From Chthonomonadales bacterium (GTDB taxonomy: Bacteria; Armatimonadota; Chthonomonadetes; Chthonomonadales; CAJBBX01): DNA of 64,000 bases. Where the stretch lies: contig DAIDHP010000005.1 of NCBI GenBank assembly GCA_027459625.1, positions 130,817-194,816 of the forward strand, written 5' to 3'. A program made the translations under genes and the position numbers. Positions 3,119 to 17,110 of the stretch are shown here, piece after piece (positions within the stretch are counted from its first letter, which is position 1; each line of letters begins with the position of its first letter). Below the pieces are notes generated by a model. That model was not told the DNA's origin and did not search any database. It worked only from the letters and a program-made list of their open reading frames with translations.

Positions 3119-5851
3119 TTAGCCAGTGTTTCGCAATCCCGACGCGATACCGCTGATAGTGACGTCAATCACCTCTCGTAACTCCTCCGCTTCCGGTGCA
3201 TTCGGATCCGGCAGGGAGCGCAATCGGCGAAGAATCTCCACCTGCAGATAGTTTAAAGGGTCCACATAAGGGTTACGGAGTTTTATGGACCTCTGGATGA
3301 TGGGATCGGAATCCATCAACTCCTCGTGGCTGGTGATTGCAAGGATGGAATCCCTGGTTCTGTCATATTCGTTTTGAATGGAGGTGAAAATCCGATTTGC
3401 CAACTCCTTGTCCGGCGTCAAATCCGAGTAAAGCTGGGCTATTTCCATATCGGCTTTGAGGATGGCCATCTCCGCATTGTCCAGCAAAGCCTTGAAAAAC
3501 GGCCACTCCTCGTATATCTCCTTCAATCGTATTGGATCCTCCTCGGCAAGTCCGGAACCCAAACCGTACCAGCCCGGGAAATTATAACGAGATTGCATCC
3601 AAGAAAAGACCCACGGTATAGCGCGAATTTTCGTTACCTGAGGATTAGACCCCCCGCGCGATGAGGGGCGAGACCCTATGCTGAGTCGATTGATTTCATC
3701 TATGGGTGTGGCGGACCGCCAATAATCCGTGAACCCGGGTGTTTCGTACACCAATTTGCGATACGCGGCGAGTGAAGCGGCGGATATTTTCTCCATTACA
3801 TTGCGCCAAACGAGCATATTCTTATGGGTTTTTCCATTAATAGACGGGTATTCGTCCTTTGCGCTCGCCAAAATGACCGCATTGGCGATCTGTTCCAAAT
3901 GGCGATGTGCGAGATCGAAATTGGAATATCTTGAGGCTATGTTCTCTCCCTGCTCCGTTAGTCGAAACCTTCCATGAAGCGTTCCCGGAGGCTGGGCTCG
4001 GATGGCTCTGTTCGCAGGTCCGCCCCCTCTCGCCACGGATCCTCCGCGTCCATGAAACAGAGTGAGACGAATGTTATTTTTGCCGCAAACCTCCGCGATC
4101 TCCTCTTGGGATTGATATAACGCCCAGTTCGCTGCGAGAAATCCACCATCCTTGTTGCTATCCGAATAACCAATCATTACCATCTGTTCCCACCCGCAAG
4201 TGGATAGGTGTTCATGGTAGGCGTCTGTGGTAAACAGATTTTCAAGGATATCCGAGGCGTTGTGCAAATCATCCATCGTTTCGAACAGCGGCACGATGGA
4301 AAATCCGTCGGCGCATCCTGACCATTTCGCGAGGAGCAAGACGGTTAGCACATCCGCCGCTCCGCGGCACATCGAGATGATGAACGTTTTTAGCAAATCG
4401 CCCCCGTATACGTTATGCACTCGGGAGATGAGCCGGAAAAGCGACCATGTTTCCGCCGACGCCGAGGTCACCCCCGGGGTTCGCGCTAGTAGGTTGGGTC
4501 GTTCCGGATGCTCCCGCAATAATTTTATAAGAACCTCCAAACGCCCTTTCTCATCTTTTGACTCGAAATTGGTGTCAAATCCTATCGCTAGCAAAATCTC
4601 CCCCAATGCGGAGCGCAAACGGCTGGAATCCTCCCTTAAGTCCAAATGTGCGCAATGCAATCCGAAAATATCCAGATGATACTGCACCGATTTCAGTTTC
4701 GTATTCGTTAATCTTGTTGGAAGGGCGGATGCGATCATATCCAAAGGTCCCCGCAGATCCTCCACATTCAGACTCGCCTTGTGCGGTGTGTCGCTTAATA
4801 AGTAGTGGGTTACATTTTCTTGCGACGCCTCCTCCAAATCGGATACAAGCAGAGCGACCGCATGACGATAGGGTTCGTTTGCGTATCTCCCCTCGAGGTA
4901 TGCCACATGTTCCGGCCAAGGTCGTCTCGAATCGAGCCATTGCGTTAATTTCTCAGGCGACGGCACCCTTTGCCCGTTAATGCTTAGACGTCTGGATAGA
5001 TCCTGCAATAACCTTCGGTGTCTCTCCACAGCCAGCCCTCGGTGCAGTCTAAGAGTCTCCGCAGTGACTTCGGCCGTTACATTGGGATTTCCATCTCTGT
5101 CCCCACCGATCCACGACGCGATGGTTAACCACCCCGTTGGAGAGGTGATGTCGGGATAGTATTTCGTCAATGCGGCGTCAAGGCTCTCATAAATCATGGG
5201 AAGGGCGTCCCAGAAAACCTCGTCCACAAAATAGAGACCGGTGCGCACTTCATCCGTAACGGCGGGCTTGTTCGTTCGGAATCTGCGCGTTAGCCATAAA
5301 ACGGAAAGTTCGGAAAGCATCATGCTCTCAAATTCAGAGCGTTCCCTCGGCAATGGCTCGGATTCATAAAAAACCTTGACGATATCCGATATTCTTTTGA
5401 GGCTGGAGAGTATCGTTCGGCGTTTCGCTTCCGTTGGGTGCGCAGTGATCACCAATTCGATATGCAGCTTTCGAAGCAGACTATCCACTTGACTTGAGGT
5501 CAGTCCCTTCTGCTTGAGTATAAGGATGGCTTCGGCTATGGAATCATCCACCGGCATGGGATCTCCCATGCGTTCCCTTTCGCGAAGGATGTGAACTCGC
5601 TGCGCCTCCTCCGCAAGATTTGCGATGTCAAAATAGAGGGTGAACGCTGTTGCAATTCCTCGCGCCATATCCGCTGTGAGTTGCGAGGCTTCGTACGCCA
5701 ATCTTTCCGCAGCGTAAGTGTCTCCTCCTCGGCGTGCTTTTGCGAGAGCGCGAATACGCTCCTCCGTTTCAAACAACAAGGGGGATTCCTGCTCGCTTAT
5801 GACTCGTCCGAGCATATCCCCCATATAGTGTATGATGGTTGCCAGTTCCAT
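3119..5851 (-). CDS. ppc: Phosphoenolpyruvate carboxylase
   Basis: 910 aa with TAHPTEAKRRT, SWIGGDRDGNP, MIGYSDSNKDGG, FHGRGGSVARGG, RAIPWVFSW and C-terminal RNTG. Confidence 0.98.
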   Translation of the reverse strand: MELATIIHYMGDMLGRVISEQESPLLFETEERIRALAKARRGGDTYAAERLAYEASQLTADMARGIATAFTLYFDIANLAEEAQRVHILRERERMGDPMPVDDSIAEAILILKQKGLTSSQVDSLLRKLHIELVITAHPTEAKRRTILSSLKRISDIVKVFYESEPLPRERSEFESMMLSELSVLWLTRRFRTNKPAVTDEVRTGLYFVDEVFWDALPMIYESLDAALTKYYPDITSPTGWLTIASWIGGDRDGNPNVTAEVTAETLRLHRGLAVERHRRLLQDLSRRLSINGQRVPSPEKLTQWLDSRRPWPEHVAYLEGRYANEPYRHAVALLVSDLEEASQENVTHYLLSDTPHKASLNVEDLRGPLDMIASALPTRLTNTKLKSVQYHLDIFGLHCAHLDLREDSSRLRSALGEILLAIGFDTNFESKDEKGRLEVLIKLLREHPERPNLLARTPGVTSASAETWSLFRLISRVHNVYGGDLLKTFIISMCRGAADVLTVLLLAKWSGCADGFSIVPLFETMDDLHNASDILENLFTTDAYHEHLSTCGWEQMVMIGYSDSNKDGGFLAANWALYQSQEEIAEVCGKNNIRLTLFHGRGGSVARGGGPANRAIRAQPPGTLHGRFRLTEQGENIASRYSNFDLAHRHLEQIANAVILASAKDEYPSINGKTHKNMLVWRNVMEKISAASLAAYRKLVYETPGFTDYWRSATPIDEINRLSIGSRPSSRGGSNPQVTKIRAIPWVFSWMQSRYNFPGWYGLGSGLAEEDPIRLKEIYEEWPFFKALLDNAEMAILKADMEIAQLYSDLTPDKELANRIFTSIQNEYDRTRDSILAITSHEELMDSDPIIQRSIKLRNPYVDPLNYLQVEILRRLRSLPDPNAPEAEELREVIDVTISGIASGLRNTG

Positions 5852-11016: not shown

Positions 11017-12316
11017 GGCTCTATGGGGAAGTTTGTGGAAACCCCCGGGAATTATCCATAATGATACATTATGAAAGATACCGAACTCTACACACAAATA
11101 TTGGGAATATCTTCTCCCTGGTATGTCGCCAGCATCGAAATGAAAATGGAGGAGGAGTCGATTTTCGTTCATCTGGCGTATGACCCCCTTGTCACCCAAT
11201 GGTCTTGTCCGGAATGCGGTTCACCTTGCAAGACCTACGACACTCGGGAGCGTCGGACGTGGCGTCATCTGGACAGTTGCCAACTTAAAACATTCATAAC
11301 GGCGTCTTCTCCCCGTGTGTCCTGCAAGGATCATGGCGTTCTGACGGTTAGGGTTCCGTGGAGCGAACCGAATTCTCGCTTCACGATTCAATTCGAGCAA
11401 ATGGCCATACTGATGCTTCGGTCCACCCAGGTTCAGAGCAAGGCCGCAACCCTGCTTCGTCTAAGTGCGGGACAGGTGCACGACATCATGCATCGAGCGG
11501 TTTCCCGCGGATTGTCCCGCAGAGACGCTGGGGAGGGGATAACCCACTTGTCCCTGGATGAAAAGAGCTTCAGGAAAGGCCATCGTTATGTGAGCGTTCT
11601 CGGGGATCCGAATGGCAAGCGTGTTCTTGACATTATCGAGAAACGCACTCTGGAGGTTGCCGAAAAACTTCTCGTGGAAAGTTTGACCCCTTCTCAAAGG
11701 TTAAAAGTGAAATCCGTCTCCATGGATATGTGGCCTGCGTACATGCAGGCTGTGAACACAAAGCTCCCCTCCGCTGACATAGTGCATGATCGCTTCCATG
11801 TAATCAAGTATCTCAACCTCGCCGTTGACGACACCAGACGCTCGGAGAGCCGAAGACTCGCCAAAAGCGAGGATGGCACACTGAAAAGATCAAAGTATCT
11901 CTGGCTTCGAGCCCCGGAGAGGATGACCGAGAAGCAATGCAAGGCGTTCGAACGACTAAGGAATCTCGATCTTGACACGGCGAAGGCTTGGGCTTTCAAG
12001 GAGAGTTTCCGACGGTTCTTTCAATGCGCAACAGTGATCGAGGCGCAAACATTCTTTTACGATTGGTATGAAGCCGCCCTGCTGTTGAAAAACGCTCACC
12101 TGTCCAAGGTGGCTCAAATGCTCAACCGGCATATCGAGGGTCTTTTGGCTTATGTCAGGCACAAAGTTACGAACGCGTCAGCCGAGGGGTTGAATTCACT
12201 AATCCAGCAAATAAAGTCCAACGCCAAAGGCTTCAGAAGATTCGATAATTTCAGGGTCGCAGTCTTGTTTTTTCTGGGAAAGCTTGATCTCAGTCCACAA
12301 ACTTCCCCATAGAGCC
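11017..12316 (+). mobile_element. ISL3-family insertion sequence, 1300 bp, apparently intact
   Basis: Perfect 23-bp terminal inverted repeats GGCTCTATGGGGAAGTTTGTGGA (11017-11039) and TCCACAAACTTCCCCATAGAGCC (12294-12316) flank one transposase ORF. No target-site duplication. Confidence 0.95.
11071..12312 (+). CDS. ISL3-family transposase
   Basis: 413 aa with zinc finger CPECG…C, WRHLD, LSLDEKSF, SMDMW, DRFHV and NASAEGLNS. The stop codon lies inside the right IR. Confidence 0.95.
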   Translation: MKDTELYTQILGISSPWYVASIEMKMEEESIFVHLAYDPLVTQWSCPECGSPCKTYDTRERRTWRHLDSCQLKTFITASSPRVSCKDHGVLTVRVPWSEPNSRFTIQFEQMAILMLRSTQVQSKAATLLRLSAGQVHDIMHRAVSRGLSRRDAGEGITHLSLDEKSFRKGHRYVSVLGDPNGKRVLDIIEKRTLEVAEKLLVESLTPSQRLKVKSVSMDMWPAYMQAVNTKLPSADIVHDRFHVIKYLNLAVDDTRRSESRRLAKSEDGTLKRSKYLWLRAPERMTEKQCKAFERLRNLDLDTAKAWAFKESFRRFFQCATVIEAQTFFYDWYEAALLLKNAHLSKVAQMLNRHIEGLLAYVRHKVTNASAEGLNSLIQQIKSNAKGFRRFDNFRVAVLFFLGKLDLSPQTSP

Positions 12317-12343
12317 TTAATTTGAATAACGGAACACCATATC

Positions 12344-12952
12344 GGGACGGGCCTAGGCTACGACGCCTCCGGGAACCTGACATCCCTGAACGGGGAGACG
12401 CTCTCCTGGGTCGCGTGGGGCGAGCTGAGCGGGGTGACGGGGACGCCCTCCGGGAACGTGAGCTATGCGTACGACGCCTTCGGCAGGCGGATGTCCAAAA
12501 CCGTCGGCTCAAGTACGACCTACTACCTGTACGACGGCGACGCCCTGATAGCGGAGGTTGACGCCTCCACCGACCAGGTCACCACCGCCTACACCTGGGG
12601 CGCGGACGGTTTGGTGAGCGACCATGCGGGGACGCAGAGCCGGTTTTACCTCTTCGACGCGCTCGGGAACGCGCGAAGTTTGATGGATTCGAATGGGAAT
12701 CTCCTCGCCACGGCGGCGTACACCGCTTACGGAACGCCTATCGGAACGCCGCTTCCCTCAACCCCCTTCGGGTGGCATGGGGAGGCGGGATGCCGCACGG
12801 ATTCCGAGACCGGGCTGGTCTTCATGGAGGCGCGGTATTACTCTCCCGCGCTGGGGAGGTTCGTCAGCAGGGATCCGATAGGCTTCGACGGCGGGATAAA
12901 CCTGTACGCGTATTGTTACGGGGATCCGATAAATTACATCGATCCCGGTGGT
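12344..12952 (+). repeat. RHS core repeat copy 1 (609 bp)
   Basis: Collinear and highly similar to 14567-15175; the two diverge right after the DPxG codons. Confidence 0.92.
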
Positions 12953-13591
12953 ATGGATGGTAGCCCCTACTTGGTATTTGACGCCCAGGACACACTTATG
13001 GGAGTCAAAATGGGGTTCGCCGCATTAGGATACGCATTCTCCTTCACCTTGTGGAAGCCCGGTGAGGAGTACACGTCCGCTCCTGGATGGGACGCCAGCA
13101 AGTATTGCGCAGGGGTTGGTGCGGGAGCCACCTACGCGGCCGCAGCGCTGGCGGCGCCTGGAATTATTGCGAAGGCATCTCCGTATGTGACGAGATTTCT
13201 GAATCCCGTTACAGCCACCACTCTGTCCACTTTAGCCGCAAAAGATGCCGAGAATCCGGCGGCGGAAGAGGAGACGATTGAGCAGGATGGAACCAATTGC
13301 CTGAATGCGATCGAGGAGGAACTTCAAAATGCTGAAAAGAGAATCACAGTTTCGCGCTGGGGTAGACCGGGATTGCAACCGGGTGACTGGGTGATGAAGG
13401 GAAAGGCGAATTATTGGAATTATGTTAGAAGTGGCAAATGGGATCCCTTCAAATGGAATCAATTCGCTCCGTTTAGTAGTGGTCAAGAATATGAAGTGCC
13501 AGTATCTTCAATAAAATGGCCTACCGGATTGGGAATTGATGGATGGTGGAAAGGGCTTATTTATGGTCAAAGAATCTATAATCCTGATTAA
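12344..13591 (+). CDS. Orphan (5'-truncated) RHS core plus C-terminal toxin 1 of unknown family
   Basis: RHS homology starts at 12344 (GTGLGYDASGNL) and the first usable start is GTG 12434. YD repeats, then GRFVSRDPIG…NLYAYCYGDPINYIDPGG, then a unique extension. Confidence 0.85.
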   Translation, partial: GTGLGYDASGNLTSLNGETLSWVAWGELSGVTGTPSGNVSYAYDAFGRRMSKTVGSSTTYYLYDGDALIAEVDASTDQVTTAYTWGADGLVSDHAGTQSRFYLFDALGNARSLMDSNGNLLATAAYTAYGTPIGTPLPSTPFGWHGEAGCRTDSETGLVFMEARYYSPALGRFVSRDPIGFDGGINLYAYCYGDPINYIDPGGMDGSPYLVFDAQDTLMGVKMGFAALGYAFSFTLWKPGEEYTSAPGWDASKYCAGVGAGATYAAAALAAPGIIAKASPYVTRFLNPVTATTLSTLAAKDAENPAAEEETIEQDGTNCLNAIEEELQNAEKRITVSRWGRPGLQPGDWVMKGKANYWNYVRSGKWDPFKWNQFAPFSSGQEYEVPVSSIKWPTGLGIDGWWKGLIYGQRIYNPD

Positions 13592-13606
13592 ATTATAAGG
13601 TGAGCA

Positions 13607-13888
13607 ATGAAAATTATAGAATATGTTATAGAGATTATATTATTATTATTTTCCATTCATATAATTTCAATAAATCTGATTATATTAATAATATGGCTCA
13701 TACGTAAAAAACCTATATCATCCATGGCGCCTTTCTTTGGCGGAATACTTTGTAGTATAATAATATTAATTCAACCGATTCATATTGTAAAATTTTATTG
13801 GTGGATACCAATAATAATAGATCCATCAAATTATAGCATTGCATATTTTATTTTTTATAACTTATTTCATATGCGTTTATATAAGTAA
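13607..13888 (+). CDS. Putative immunity protein for RHS toxin 1 (small membrane protein)
   Basis: 93 aa, very AT-rich and hydrophobic, 15 nt after the toxin stop, with an AAGGTGAG SD-like motif upstream. Confidence 0.7.
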   Translation: MKIIEYVIEIILLLFSIHIISINLIILIIWLIRKKPISSMAPFFGGILCSIIILIQPIHIVKFYWWIPIIIDPSNYSIAYFIFYNLFHMRLYK

Positions 13889-14029
13889 TACTTTTATCTT
13901 GTATAATTTGACGTATATCGGTTCACAAAATCAAAGAATCTCATAATATTCAAGCGGCTGACGAGCGTCACCACCGTCATCGGCACCTACTCCTACACCG
14001 TTTCGTACACTTATTCCGGGGATGGTCAT

Positions 14030-15817
14030 GTGGCATCCATGACCTCGCCGGTCGGCGTGACCACCTACGGCTACGACGCCGACGGCAGGCTCGTCTCGAT
14101 GACAAACCCCTTCGGCGAGACGACGACCTGGGCCTACGATCACTCGGGAAGGATGACCTCGCAGTCCGTCGCGACATCCGCCGGAGCGACCATCGGCACG
14201 AATTATTCCTACGGTTCGAGCGGGCAGCAAGGAGACACATCCTCCGCGCCGTTCTACCTGAGTGGGGCGAGCGAGACGGTGAACGGCGCTCCGTTCGAGA
14301 GCTACGCTCTCACGCACTCCTACCTGGATCAGGTGACGGGTCAGAGCGAGACAGGTCCCTCCTCCGGGACGGACGCCTACCAGTATGATTCACGGGGACG
14401 CCTCTCATCGGAATCCGAGAATCTCCAGGTGAACGGCCAGCCCGAAACGAACTCGGCGTCCTTCACTTTCGATCTCGCGAACAATCTGGAGGCGGGAGGC
14501 GGCGGATGGGGCTATAATAACAACGATCAGGTGACGACCGCCCCGGGGGTCGCCGGTCTCGCCGGCGGGACGGGACTTGGTTACGACGCCTCCGGGAACC
14601 TGACCTCGCTGAACGGGGAGACGCTCTCATGGGACGCGTGGGGCGAGCTGAGCGGGGTGACGGGGACGCCCTCCGGAAACGTGAGCTATGCGTACGACGC
14701 CTTCGGCAGGCGGATGTCCAAAACCGTCGGCTCGCAGACCACCTATTACCTATACGACGGCGACGCCCTGATAGCGGAGGTGGACGCCTCCAGTGGTCAG
14801 GTAACCAGGTCGTACACTTGGGGCGCGGACGGTCTGGTGAGCGACCATGCGGGGACGCAGAGCCGGTTTTATCTCTTCGACGCGCTCGGGAACGCGCGAA
14901 GTTTGCTGGACCCGAATGGGAGCCTTCTAGCTTCAGCCGCATACACCGCTTACGGGACTCCCATCGGGACGCCGCTTCCGTCCACGCCCTACGGATGGCA
15001 GGGGCAGGTGGGATGCCGCACGGACTCCGAGACCAGGCTGGTCTATATGCAGGCGCGGTATTATGCGCCGGGTCTGGGCAGATTCGTCAGCAGGGATCCG
15101 ATCGGGTTCGCCGGCGGGATAAACCTCTACGCCTACTGCGACGGGGATCCTGTAAATTATTGGGATCCTGATGGTACGACGGAGTTCACAAAGGATTACT
15201 TCAAGGAATTACTCAGGAAAGGTATTGATACATTCCTTGATATAGGACCATGGCAGGATGTCTGGGGCATATTGGAAAGTTTCCATGTTCCTCGTTATGA
15301 CAAGTTGGGTGAGAATAAGCTTCTACCAATAAAAGACGACGAGGATGCGAAGGATGCGGATACCGATTTCATCATAGGCACCATGGGGATGGGATCGTTC
15401 CTATCGATAGATGAGGCGCCGGCAATTGAAGCGGATGATCCTATCGCCGCAGCGGATGCTGCGAATGAGGAGAAATTATGCCCGATTACCGGAGAGCCGG
15501 TTCATGATAATGAAAACGAACGCATTGATCCCCCAACTGATCGTACCCTGTTAAGAAGGAATATGGGCGAACCGCCGGATGAGGGATATCATGCGCATCA
15601 TATGTTGCCATGGAAATTCCGAAAGTTTTTCGCGCAAGCGGGTTTGGATGTGAATGACCCTGAATACGGATTGTGGGTCAAAGCGGAGAGGCACTTGTCA
15701 TTCGGCTATAAATACAATACGGCATGGAGGGTTTTTTTCATAGCTAATAAAAACGCAAGTAAAGCCGATATTCTGAATAAATTGCTGGAACTGAACAAGA
15801 CGGGACTCTATAAATAA
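14030..15817 (+). CDS. Orphan (5'-truncated) RHS core plus C-terminal AHH/DUF2380-like HNH nuclease toxin
   Basis: YD repeats (homology begins about 13947), NLYAYCDGDPVNYWDPDG boundary, and CT motif LRRNMG…HAHHMLP…F…G.DVNDP.YG.W…H…YN..W..F. Confidence 0.85.
   Translation: MASMTSPVGVTTYGYDADGRLVSMTNPFGETTTWAYDHSGRMTSQSVATSAGATIGTNYSYGSSGQQGDTSSAPFYLSGASETVNGAPFESYALTHSYLDQVTGQSETGPSSGTDAYQYDSRGRLSSESENLQVNGQPETNSASFTFDLANNLEAGGGGWGYNNNDQVTTAPGVAGLAGGTGLGYDASGNLTSLNGETLSWDAWGELSGVTGTPSGNVSYAYDAFGRRMSKTVGSQTTYYLYDGDALIAEVDASSGQVTRSYTWGADGLVSDHAGTQSRFYLFDALGNARSLLDPNGSLLASAAYTAYGTPIGTPLPSTPYGWQGQVGCRTDSETRLVYMQARYYAPGLGRFVSRDPIGFAGGINLYAYCDGDPVNYWDPDGTTEFTKDYFKELLRKGIDTFLDIGPWQDVWGILESFHVPRYDKLGENKLLPIKDDEDAKDADTDFIIGTMGMGSFLSIDEAPAIEADDPIAAADAANEEKLCPITGEPVHDNENERIDPPTDRTLLRRNMGEPPDEGYHAHHMLPWKFRKFFAQAGLDVNDPEYGLWVKAERHLSFGYKYNTAWRVFFIANKNASKADILNKLLELNKTGLYK
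14567..15175 (+). repeat. RHS core repeat copy 2 (609 bp)
   Basis: Collinear and highly similar to 12344-12952. Confidence 0.92.
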
Positions 15818-15835: not shown

Positions 15836-16531
15836 ATGATTTTTTATGATTTCGGTGACAACTCATTTTGCACAAGAGGATATACCTGGGCTTGGTCCTT
15901 GAAGCCTCGTCCTCCGGAACTGCTGTTGCGATGTAAAAAATGCACGGCCGGCATGTCGACATATCCCAAACACCCATTAGGTCTTTCCGTGGAGGGGGGA
16001 GTGAAATACCCTGACATCCTTGGATGCGGAGGATACCCGCTTCTTATCGTATCGCAAAACGTGATCGATGACTGGGAGAAATTCGGGATAACCGGATATG
16101 AGAAGTATGAGGCGAACATAGTGGAGGCGAACGGGAAGCGGATAAGGGATTTGAAGCCACCGCAGTATTATCATATCAATATCACCGGAAGAGCCCAGTA
16201 TGATATGGACGCGATGGGTTTCAGATGCGAAGTTGTGTGCAATTACTGCGGTCACACGAGATTCGTTGATTCAAACAATAACATGGATATTCCGAGTCCC
16301 ACGATAATCAAGGATGGATCGTGGGACGGTTCGGATATATTTGCAGCGGATATAACCCCAAGGAGATCGTTTTGCACGGAAAAAATACTTTTTCTGGCGG
16401 GAATGAATGAAAGAACAAACTGCAGATTCGTTCCCTTGGATGACAAAGATCCTGTGAGCAACAAAGGACTGGATTACAAGGCGATCGCGAAAAGGATGCT
16501 GCGTGAAACGCGAAACCCATTCGAAAAATAA
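15836..16531 (+). CDS. Putative immunity protein with two CxxC motifs (double-CXXCG/Imm43-like)
   Basis: 231 aa, 18 nt after the toxin stop with an AGAGGG SD. Contains CKKC, CNYCG and PDILG…LLIVSQNVID…GITG. Confidence 0.72.
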   Translation: MIFYDFGDNSFCTRGYTWAWSLKPRPPELLLRCKKCTAGMSTYPKHPLGLSVEGGVKYPDILGCGGYPLLIVSQNVIDDWEKFGITGYEKYEANIVEANGKRIRDLKPPQYYHINITGRAQYDMDAMGFRCEVVCNYCGHTRFVDSNNNMDIPSPTIIKDGSWDGSDIFAADITPRRSFCTEKILFLAGMNERTNCRFVPLDDKDPVSNKGLDYKAIAKRMLRETRNPFEK

Positions 16532-16668
16532 TCTCACTCCTCTTTCTCCCCTTCCGCTCGAGGAGTAAGGCGAAAAGGATTTTTTTATCCAACTAAACGG
16601 AGGATGGCGGACTTTACTTGCGCCTTATGTAGTGTATATTTAACTATCTGATGCGTTTGAATGCGCAT

Positions 16669-16937
16669 ACGCCTCCGGGAACCTAACCTCGCTGAACGGG
16701 GAGACGCTCTCATGGGACGCGTGGGGCGAGCTGAGCGGGGTGACGGGGGCGCCCTCCGGAAACGTGAGCTATGCGTACGACGCCTTCGGCAGGCGGATGT
16801 CCAAAACCGTCGGCTCGCAGACCACCTATTACCTGTACGACGGCGACGCCCTGATAGCGGAGGTGGACGCCTCCGGGAACCAGGTCACCAGGTCGTACAC
16901 GTGGGGCGCGGACGGCTTGGTGAGCGACCGCGCGGGA
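16669..16937 (+). pseudogene. Third RHS core fragment, truncated at both ends (repeat copy 3)
   Basis: About 270 bp near-identical to 14586-14854 (ACGCCTCCGGGAACC…GGTGAGCGACC). Breaks off before the core end and carries no toxin. Confidence 0.88.
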
Positions 16938-17110
16938 AGCGCCTTTTCCACCCTTTTCTTGATGCTGGATAATCCCATCAGAATGTCGTTAAATCATGAG
17001 ATTCCATACGCGTCGTGATATATTTTCCGCTTGCATTGACGAATTCGCACGAACGTCGTAGAATATTTATGTTCGCTAACAATCTATTGGGGGTGGAAAA
17101 AAGGCTACCC

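Follow-up and report, generated by a model that had tools for sequence, protein, structure and literature searches.

Does the stretch that follows the end of an Rhs shell in an Armatimonadota genome encode a toxin, and if so, where would this toxin act? The question is raised by positions 12953–13888 of a sequence of 64,000 nucleotides (nt) from a Chthonomonadales bacterium (contig DAIDHP010000005.1; this whole 64-kb sequence is called the window below). A first-pass annotation, made from the letters alone, had read it as an RHS toxin domain of no recognised family, paired with a membrane immunity protein. Here, region 12343–13888 is assigned with high confidence to an orphan Rhs C-terminal cassette. 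It comprises the end of the Rhs shell with a predicted self-cleavage junction, a linker of 125 amino acids (aa), an 85-aa predicted toxin domain, whose family is widespread but undescribed, and a dedicated three-helix membrane immunity protein.

A terminal domain behind the Rhs junction and its membrane partner

Open reading frame (ORF) 12434–13591 (+), whose frame is open from ~12322, just past an insertion sequence (IS), has the translation that had been quoted in the first pass. It can be divided into the end of the Rhs shell (residues 1–173), a linker (174–298) and a Trp/Gly/Pro-rich domain (299–385). The first part belongs to an Rhs core remnant (12343–12952, +; GC content 0.64) that represents the last ~200 aa of the shell. 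It matches the NCBIfam model TIGR03696 Rhs_assc_core (aa 96–174, E=1.7e-22), and solved Rhs, Tc/TcC and teneurin chains from the PDB align to aa ~4–174, mostly ending at ~174–180. The remnant ends in a DPIG...DPGG junction motif of the DPxG ... DPxG type (DPINYIDPGG followed by MDGSPYL; in the longer form RDPIGFDGGINLYAYCYGDPINYIDPGG followed by M), and 12953 is exactly the first codon past the core. Judged by this motif, the junction is predicted to be the self-cleavage site at which the C-terminal region is released. A complete YD-repeat shell and an N-terminal delivery or secretion domain are not present. Because only ~200 aa of the core are left and the frame opens right after the IS, the ORF is an orphan fragment and not a complete toxin. 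This means, the term RHS toxin is correct with regard to the Rhs core and the variable C-terminal domain, but the gene is not full-length: It is a 5'-truncated orphan cassette, the first of three.

The predicted toxin domain (13328–13591, +; GC 0.42) is composed of 87 aa followed by the stop codon. It contains 8 Trp, 11 Gly and 7 Pro, as expected from the Trp/Gly/Pro-rich end described in the first pass, lacks His and Cys and has an isoelectric point (pI) of 9.7. Among Pfam and NCBIfam families, the best match of the C-terminal region was DUF4410 with E=0.09, far under the cut-off of this family. Comparison with PDB sequences, using both the single sequence and a profile, returned chance-level matches only. 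When the 38 members of a family alignment (A1) were scanned against Pfam at E≤10, no family was common to more than two of the 38. By these comparisons, the C-terminal domain would belong to no described family, in agreement with the first-pass annotation. Neither the Pfam-type profile search nor the Foldseek run reported below, both of which had been named there as checks, yielded a match to a characterised toxin family. As to the PT1-9 toxins of Nachmias et al. (10.1101/2021.10.19.465003), the motif words were not found in one supplementary file, and no link was drawn.

A HMMER search of 1.84 billion representative proteins (clusters at 50% identity) found the domain in 365 clusters at E≤1e-3 and in 241 at E≤1e-10. 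The family has no name and is referred to here as SRWG after its motif SRWG...GQRxYxP. The match is restricted to the last ~85 query residues, and in nearly all of the 150 matches listed, the domain is located at or near the C-terminus. Twelve long carriers were scanned. They comprise Rhs/YD proteins of 916–4058 aa, some of them with DUF6531, proteins of the fused TcB-TcC type with SpvB, TcdB-mid and FG-GAP regions, and one teneurin-type protein. Short copies with a Sec-type signal peptide were found, too (P0149, P0047). A scan of one genome per species yielded 40 loci from about eight phyla: Acidobacteriota, Planctomycetota, Verrucomicrobiota, Myxococcota, Bacteroidota, Chloroflexota, Beta-/Gammaproteobacteria and Firmicutes.

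In alignment A1, residues V8, R10, W11, G12, G15, L16, W21, G25, S35, K37, N44, G52, P65, Q81 and P86 are invariant, and D20, N31, Y32, W38, K75, R82 and Y84 are nearly so. The median pI of the family is ~9.9, Trp accounts for ~7.5% of the residues, and no His, Cys or Glu is conserved. HNH/His-Me nucleases, deaminases, papain-like enzymes and classical ADP-ribosyltransferases depend on well-established catalytic residues. Therefore, the lack of conserved His, Cys and Glu argues against all four classes. Together with the absence of a significant profile match, it bears out the earlier statement that the sequence has no HNH, deaminase or ADP-ribosyltransferase motif.

The presumed cognate immunity gene (13607–13888, +; GC 0.22) encodes 93 aa and is preceded by a Shine-Dalgarno-like sequence, AAGGTGA, 5 nt ahead of its ATG. 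Scanning for promoters and terminators was uninformative here, as the stretch is AT-rich. Three membrane spans are predicted: Two hydrophobic stretches at residues ~1–31 and 37–59 have means of ~1.6–2.6, and a weaker third one at ~64–86 reaches ~1.0. The loops are very short. Since the RKK of the first loop and the C-terminus are positively charged, the N-terminus is predicted to be outside and the C-terminus inside. To follow this gene, an immunity profile was made from eight ORFs downstream of homologous toxins and run on all six-frame ORFs of the fetched loci. On the strand of the toxin, an ORF of this family begins between -38 and +248 nt from where the toxin domain ends in 31 of the 40 species-representative loci and in every locus obtained by protein look-up. 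Elsewhere among the six-frame ORFs of these loci, matches are essentially absent, with one exception near a contig end (L032). The nine loci outside the 31 include two contig ends (L032, L038), one divergent member seen by eye (L034), one toxin remnant (L049), one locus where the domain is not terminal (L037) and four with other downstream genes (L017, L024, L026, L040). The immunity family comprises 41 distinct sequences from genomes of 32–66% GC and has no match in Pfam. Its motif consists of an Asn in helix 1, S-x-I/V-P-x-x-G-G at the start and a Pro at the end of helix 2, and W-W-x-P-x-x-x-D in helix 3.

The recurrence of the SRWG domain in 365 clusters and that of the downstream ORF in 31 of 40 loci are, taken together, far beyond chance. 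On these sequence grounds, the SRWG domain and the three-helix membrane protein are predicted to be a real toxin-immunity family, and the pairing proposed in the first pass is upheld. Since a gene for self-protection is present and has been kept, the target of the toxin would be bacterial. An alternative is that the terminal domain is no toxin at all, but serves Rhs proteins as a module for binding or folding, and that the small hydrophobic ORF is unrelated or spurious. This could be argued from the extreme AT-richness of the immunity gene and from L037 (3001–3939, a Paucimonas metagenome-assembled genome), where 228 residues without a Pfam family follow the domain, so that it does not end the protein, and no membrane immunity gene comes after them. 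However, the domain fills the variable toxin slot past the Rhs junction in arrays of alternative cassettes, and the small ORF has kept its motif over this wide range of sequences and base compositions and adjoins the domain while occurring practically nowhere else. A role without toxicity is thus very improbable.

Two candidates concerning the immunity position were rejected. The immunity protein of the window matches polyprenyl-/undecaprenyl-phosphate transporters with E ~0.03. As six other members of the family do not reproduce this match, it is most likely compositional. In L026 (~3344–3844) and L040 (3264–3725), the immunity position is occupied by a soluble ORF of ~155 aa, and the two ORFs are 47% identical to each other. 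They were considered as a second immunity family, but in none of 18 metagenome relatives is the toxin located upstream. Possibly, the soluble ORF encodes an orphan immunity protein with a different partner.

The SRWG domain and its immunity family were also observed in low-GC Firmicutes (Ruminococcus, Lachnospiraceae, Clostridium). In L032 (1189–2196) and L033 (2608–3258), the carriers are helical non-Rhs proteins, in which two to three segments of strong hydrophobicity directly precede the SRWG domain. By eye, these helical carriers resemble the LXG type. L018 and L042 have kept the Rhs-type junction and contain about five and three hydrophobic segments, respectively.

Between core and toxin domain lies the linker or pre-toxin module (12953–13327, +; 125 aa), which has no Pfam family. 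It contains two moderately hydrophobic, small-residue-rich segments at residues 15–33 (mean 1.33) and 55–73 (mean 1.49) of the C-terminal region (Kyte-Doolittle, 19-residue window). These are the two hydrophobic stretches that the first-pass annotation had seen ahead of the domain. They are present, but they are not part of the toxin. The module (WEALRY.FTFTLWKP...AENPAA[ED]E, ~125 aa) is common to Rhs proteins of this lineage with three unrelated C-terminal domains: SRWG in the window and in P0028, a domain with a WHH-like motif in P0007 and a third, unrelated one in P0087. Because the linker is fused to other C-terminal domains as well, the two stretches constitute a separable pre-toxin module. 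Downstream of P0007, a soluble 364-aa gene was found, and the contig is devoid of a match to the immunity profile. Since P0007 has this linker, the immunity protein tracks the terminal domain and not the linker.

Predicted fold and possible modes of action

What might the terminal domain do? A model of the 87-aa domain, obtained with AlphaFold2 from the 38-sequence alignment, reached a predicted local distance difference test score (pLDDT) of 87.5 and a predicted template modelling score (pTM) of 0.75. The 212-aa C-terminal region modelled from the single sequence yielded a pLDDT of 40 and was unusable. The modelled fold is compact with the order b-b-a-b-a-b: strands at 5–10 and 21–24, a helix at 29–35, a strand at 53–58, a helix at 74–79 and a strand at 81–84. 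Foldseek searches with this model yielded no match, the best E-values being 2.0 in the PDB and 0.66 in BFVD. Provisionally, and as set apart from the structures in the PDB and BFVD only, the SRWG domain can be regarded as a candidate new fold.

Among the modes of action considered, action at or in the cytoplasmic membrane, where the immunity protein would intercept the toxin within the bilayer, is preferred tentatively and with somewhat less than even confidence. Three groups of observations argue for it. First, the immunity protein is all-membrane, and the toxin is basic and Trp-rich without conserved His, Cys or Glu. Second, hydrophobic linkers are common, the pair is found in phyla with one and with two membranes, and some copies carry a Sec signal peptide. 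Third, known small integral-membrane immunity proteins accompany toxins that depolarise membranes, as is the case for Tse5/Tsi5 (PMC9637101), EsxX (PMC12744356) and ionophores of contact-dependent inhibition (CDI) systems (PMC11630599). More generally, membrane or periplasmic immunity proteins are taken to act by interception of the toxin, either extracellularly or in the membrane (PMC12419801). According to this scheme, the C-terminal region would be freed from the Rhs shell of a full-length carrier and delivered to a neighbouring bacterium. There, the linker with its hydrophobic segments and small residues would partition into the cytoplasmic membrane and keep the terminal domain, which is basic and rich in Trp, at its surface. 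The domain would then harm the membrane barrier or the membrane potential by binding instead of classical catalysis. The immunity protein is predicted to be almost completely embedded in the bilayer and has a conserved Asn in helix 1, Ser-x-x-Pro-x-x-Gly-Gly in helix 2 and Asp in helix 3. It would recognise the domain at the membrane or inside it and block its action.

The closest parallel is Tse5 (RhsP1)/Tsi5 of Pseudomonas aeruginosa (PMC9637101, PMC10684867). Here as there, a C-terminal region carried by an Rhs protein contains hydrophobic segments and no recognisable enzyme motif, and the partner is a small protein of the cytoplasmic membrane, which neutralises Tse5 there and is predicted here. 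In contrast to Tse5, whose C-terminal region (Tse5-CT) itself spans the membrane, the 85-aa unit tracked by the immunity protein has a predicted alpha/beta fold and is polar. In addition, Tsi5 has two predicted helices, whereas the immunity protein of the window has three. Tse5 chain 8cp6_B matched core aa 71–174 only, and the C-terminal region matched no PDB chain, the presence of the Tse5-CT chain in the searched set not being confirmed. With EsxX, a type VII effector (PMC12744356), and the CDI ionophores (PMC11630599), the SRWG pair shares a hydrophobic or small-residue-rich region upstream of the C-terminus and a small polytopic membrane immunity protein. However, these membrane-depolarising glycine-zipper toxins consist of helical bundles or zippers and lack a conserved globular tail. 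For the CDI ionophore domains, bundles of five helices are predicted, unlike the b-b-a-b-a-b order predicted for SRWG. An all-helical bundle that spans the bilayer, as in colicins E1 and A or the CDI ionophores, was not seen in the domain model, and Foldseek found no match.

The linkers provide a mixed picture. Family-wide, they are 51–302 aa long (median 111) and not conserved in sequence. A segment with a hydrophobicity of ≥1.2 is present in 69% of them compared to 2% of Rhs-core controls of the same length, and GxxxGxxxG in 26% compared to 3%. Several points, among them some concerning the linkers, weigh against a membrane-disrupting role. Both linker segments of the window are below the usual cut-off of 1.6 for a membrane helix, and about a third of the linkers have no hydrophobic segment. 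The control was weak, as it consisted of the Rhs shell, which is hydrophilic by nature, and not of the linkers of other Rhs toxins. For this reason, the enrichment may be general to Rhs C-terminal regions. The predicted fold is compact, polar and alpha/beta, without the helical bundle or amphipathic hairpin of known pore formers, and in the Foldseek searches of PDB and BFVD no structural neighbour of the model ties the domain to membranes. Furthermore, conservation is very high: Across phyla, most of the matches listed share 50–68% identity with the query. The polar residues that are invariant (R10, S35, K37, N44 and Q81) or nearly so (D20, K75, R82 and Y84) are more in line with an active or ligand site than with a pore former.

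The latter two points would suit an enzyme with a new fold that acts in the cytoplasm, e.g. a His-independent RNase using Arg, Lys, Tyr or Gln, or a Ser-Lys hydrolase. In this case, the linker would ferry the domain across the inner membrane, and the immunity protein would block its entry or sequester it at the inner face. A precedent exists: Hydrophobic or glycine-zipper regions can merely bring a cytoplasmic enzyme over the membrane, as the translocation module of the Agrobacterium nuclease Tde1 does (PMC10240207). Like Tde1, the SRWG carriers have a hydrophobic, glycine-zipper-like segment beside the toxin domain, and the linker could be a carrier in the same way. However, the module of Tde1 is N-terminal to a DNase with a soluble immunity protein, whereas here the immunity protein is predicted to be embedded in the membrane and there is no nuclease motif. 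A cytoplasmic enzyme could also account for the basic pI, which suits nucleic-acid binding, and for the position of most of the conserved residues of the immunity protein (Asn in helix 1 and S-x-x-P-x-x-G-G in helix 2), which are near the cytoplasmic leaflet according to the positive-inside rule. On the other hand, immunity proteins against such enzymes are soluble as a rule, and no soluble one is consistently linked to the domain, the soluble family of L026 and L040 being without the SRWG toxin elsewhere. Moreover, Foldseek against the PDB found no structural match to a solved nuclease or other toxin fold, and some copies have Sec signal peptides. Such an enzyme is considered unlikely.

Similarly, it is rather improbable that the target is a lipid-linked envelope precursor (undecaprenyl phosphate, lipid II) or a conserved membrane enzyme, which the domain would bind or cleave from the outer face of the cytoplasmic membrane. 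Cell-wall synthesis would then stop without depolarisation, and the immunity protein would shield the target or compete for it in the membrane. A small, basic, Trp/Gly-rich domain without classic catalytic residues, an immunity protein predicted to sit inside the membrane and the Sec signal peptides of some copies would be compatible with it. The occurrence of the same pair in single- and double-membrane bacteria would imply a universal envelope target, and the high conservation fits an invariant small molecule. By contrast, in the family and structure searches described above, the domain did not resemble colicin M, lactococcin 972 or lipocone toxins, and the match of one immunity protein to polyprenyl-phosphate transporters, being absent from the six other members, does not help this explanation. 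Membrane action remains the preferred reading at the tentative level given above.

An orphan cassette array beside an insertion sequence

How did the cassette come to its present place? On the + strand between 11017 and 17018, three Rhs-derived cassettes lie 3' of an insertion sequence, and 12343–13888 is the first of them. The insertion sequence (11017–12316, +) belongs to the ISL3 family. Its transposase ORF (11071–12312) matches Pfam DDE_Tnp_ISL3 with E=1.3e-72 as well as Zn_ribbon_ISL3 and HTH_Tnp_ISL3, and the ends are perfect 23-nt terminal inverted repeats (11017–11039 and 12294–12316). The gap to the Rhs homology, which starts at 12343, amounts to 26 nt. Because the 8-mers that border the element, ATACTGTT and TTAATTTG, are unequal, it has no target-site duplication and marks a rearranged junction instead of a simple insertion site. 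Judged from these borders, the junction was probably made by IS-mediated rearrangement, which may explain why the parent rhs gene is missing upstream.

The second orphan Rhs fragment (13950–15817, +) carries ORF 14030–15817 (595 aa; RHS_repeat, E=8.6e-24). It has a different C-terminal domain with an HAHHMLPW motif, for which only weak matches were obtained: AHH nuclease (E=0.034), DUF2380 (E=0.01) and the lipoprotein toxin SitA6 (E=0.018). Directly 3' of it lies the presumed immunity gene of this cassette (15836–16531, +), which encodes a soluble protein of 231 aa without a Pfam or NCBIfam family. The third fragment (16649–17018, +) is an Rhs core that is cut short (ORF 16740–17018, 92 aa). 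All three share a 300-nt direct repeat that starts at 12343 (100%), 14566 (91%) and 16649 (83% identity). It is derived from the core and constitutes the homology anchor of the tandem cassettes.

Orphan cassettes composed of an Rhs C-terminal part and an immunity gene are known downstream of rhs genes in Enterobacteriaceae and Serratia. Rhs toxin-immunity pairs are exchangeable (PMC10539506). The array in the window resembles such cassettes in that it combines a short core piece, a variable C-terminal toxin and an immunity gene, in its tandem units with the 300-nt anchor and in the drop of GC content in the variable part. It differs from them in two respects: The 64-kb window contains no full-length parent rhs gene, and an ISL3 element without target-site duplication is located 26 nt upstream. 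In addition, the host appears to be an uncultured mine-waste bacterium close to Armatimonadota or Chloroflexota, in which type VI secretion would presumably not be expected. The GC content declines stepwise from the core via the toxin domain to the immunity gene, the window as a whole having 49%. An immunity gene of 22% GC beside a core of 64% GC is a compositional island and consistent with a cassette acquired from elsewhere.

A relative, L011, a contig of an unclassified metagenome-assembled genome, is 92% identical and has the same first cassette followed by the same second one. In the toxin part, 12 synonymous and 9 non-synonymous codon differences were counted among 98 codons, in the immunity gene 10 and 18, respectively, among 94. 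Both frames are intact in the window and in L011. This rough count of sites indicates purifying selection on the toxin domain and a weaker constraint on the immunity protein.

Other loci were observed to contain comparable units. L071 (1–2420) is an array of mini-cassettes, each composed of a signal-peptide-like N-terminus, a very short Rhs-core end and a toxin domain. One of them has the SRWG domain and its immunity gene, which had been overlooked by the gene caller. In L012 (861–1437), two immunity genes are arranged in tandem behind one toxin, and in L028 (2267–3542) and L043 (3001–3943), units of a toxin remnant and an immunity gene follow each other. The tandem units of L012, L028 and L043 suggest local duplication and decay of cassettes.

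Meaning for the host and for the family

Reads containing the cassette originate from mine-tailings and mine-drainage metagenomes. A neighbouring gene for phosphoenolpyruvate carboxylase has at most 70–71% identity to entries of the protein collection, with an Armatimonadetes metagenome-assembled genome as best named relative, followed by Chloroflexi. Because the N-terminal delivery part is missing, the cassette is a stored spare and no active weapon. For its own genome, this copy is ordinary: a stored, probably silent cassette in an orphan array beside an insertion element. The immunity gene, which appears to have its own ribosome-binding site, may still protect the cell.

Rhs proteins and their relatives among the polymorphic toxins rank among the main sources of novel antibacterial activities, and most of the characterised ones come from Proteobacteria with type VI secretion. 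The class of polymorphic toxin-immunity pairs is already known; new is the SRWG family within this class. It is unusually widespread and, for a toxin tip, unusually conserved, and it has neither a described family nor a structural neighbour. The high conservation points to an invariant, essential target that can be reached from the envelope, which is relevant for antibacterial discovery. With 85 aa for the toxin and ~90 aa for the immunity protein, the pair is easy to test.

Finally, it is conceivable, albeit doubtful, that SRWG is an effector with a new fold that attacks a target conserved in single- and double-membrane bacteria, be it a lipid carrier or a universal membrane machine, and that it is neutralised within the bilayer via the conserved Asn and Asp. 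If true, the mode of action as well as the way in which toxin and immunity protein recognise each other would be new.

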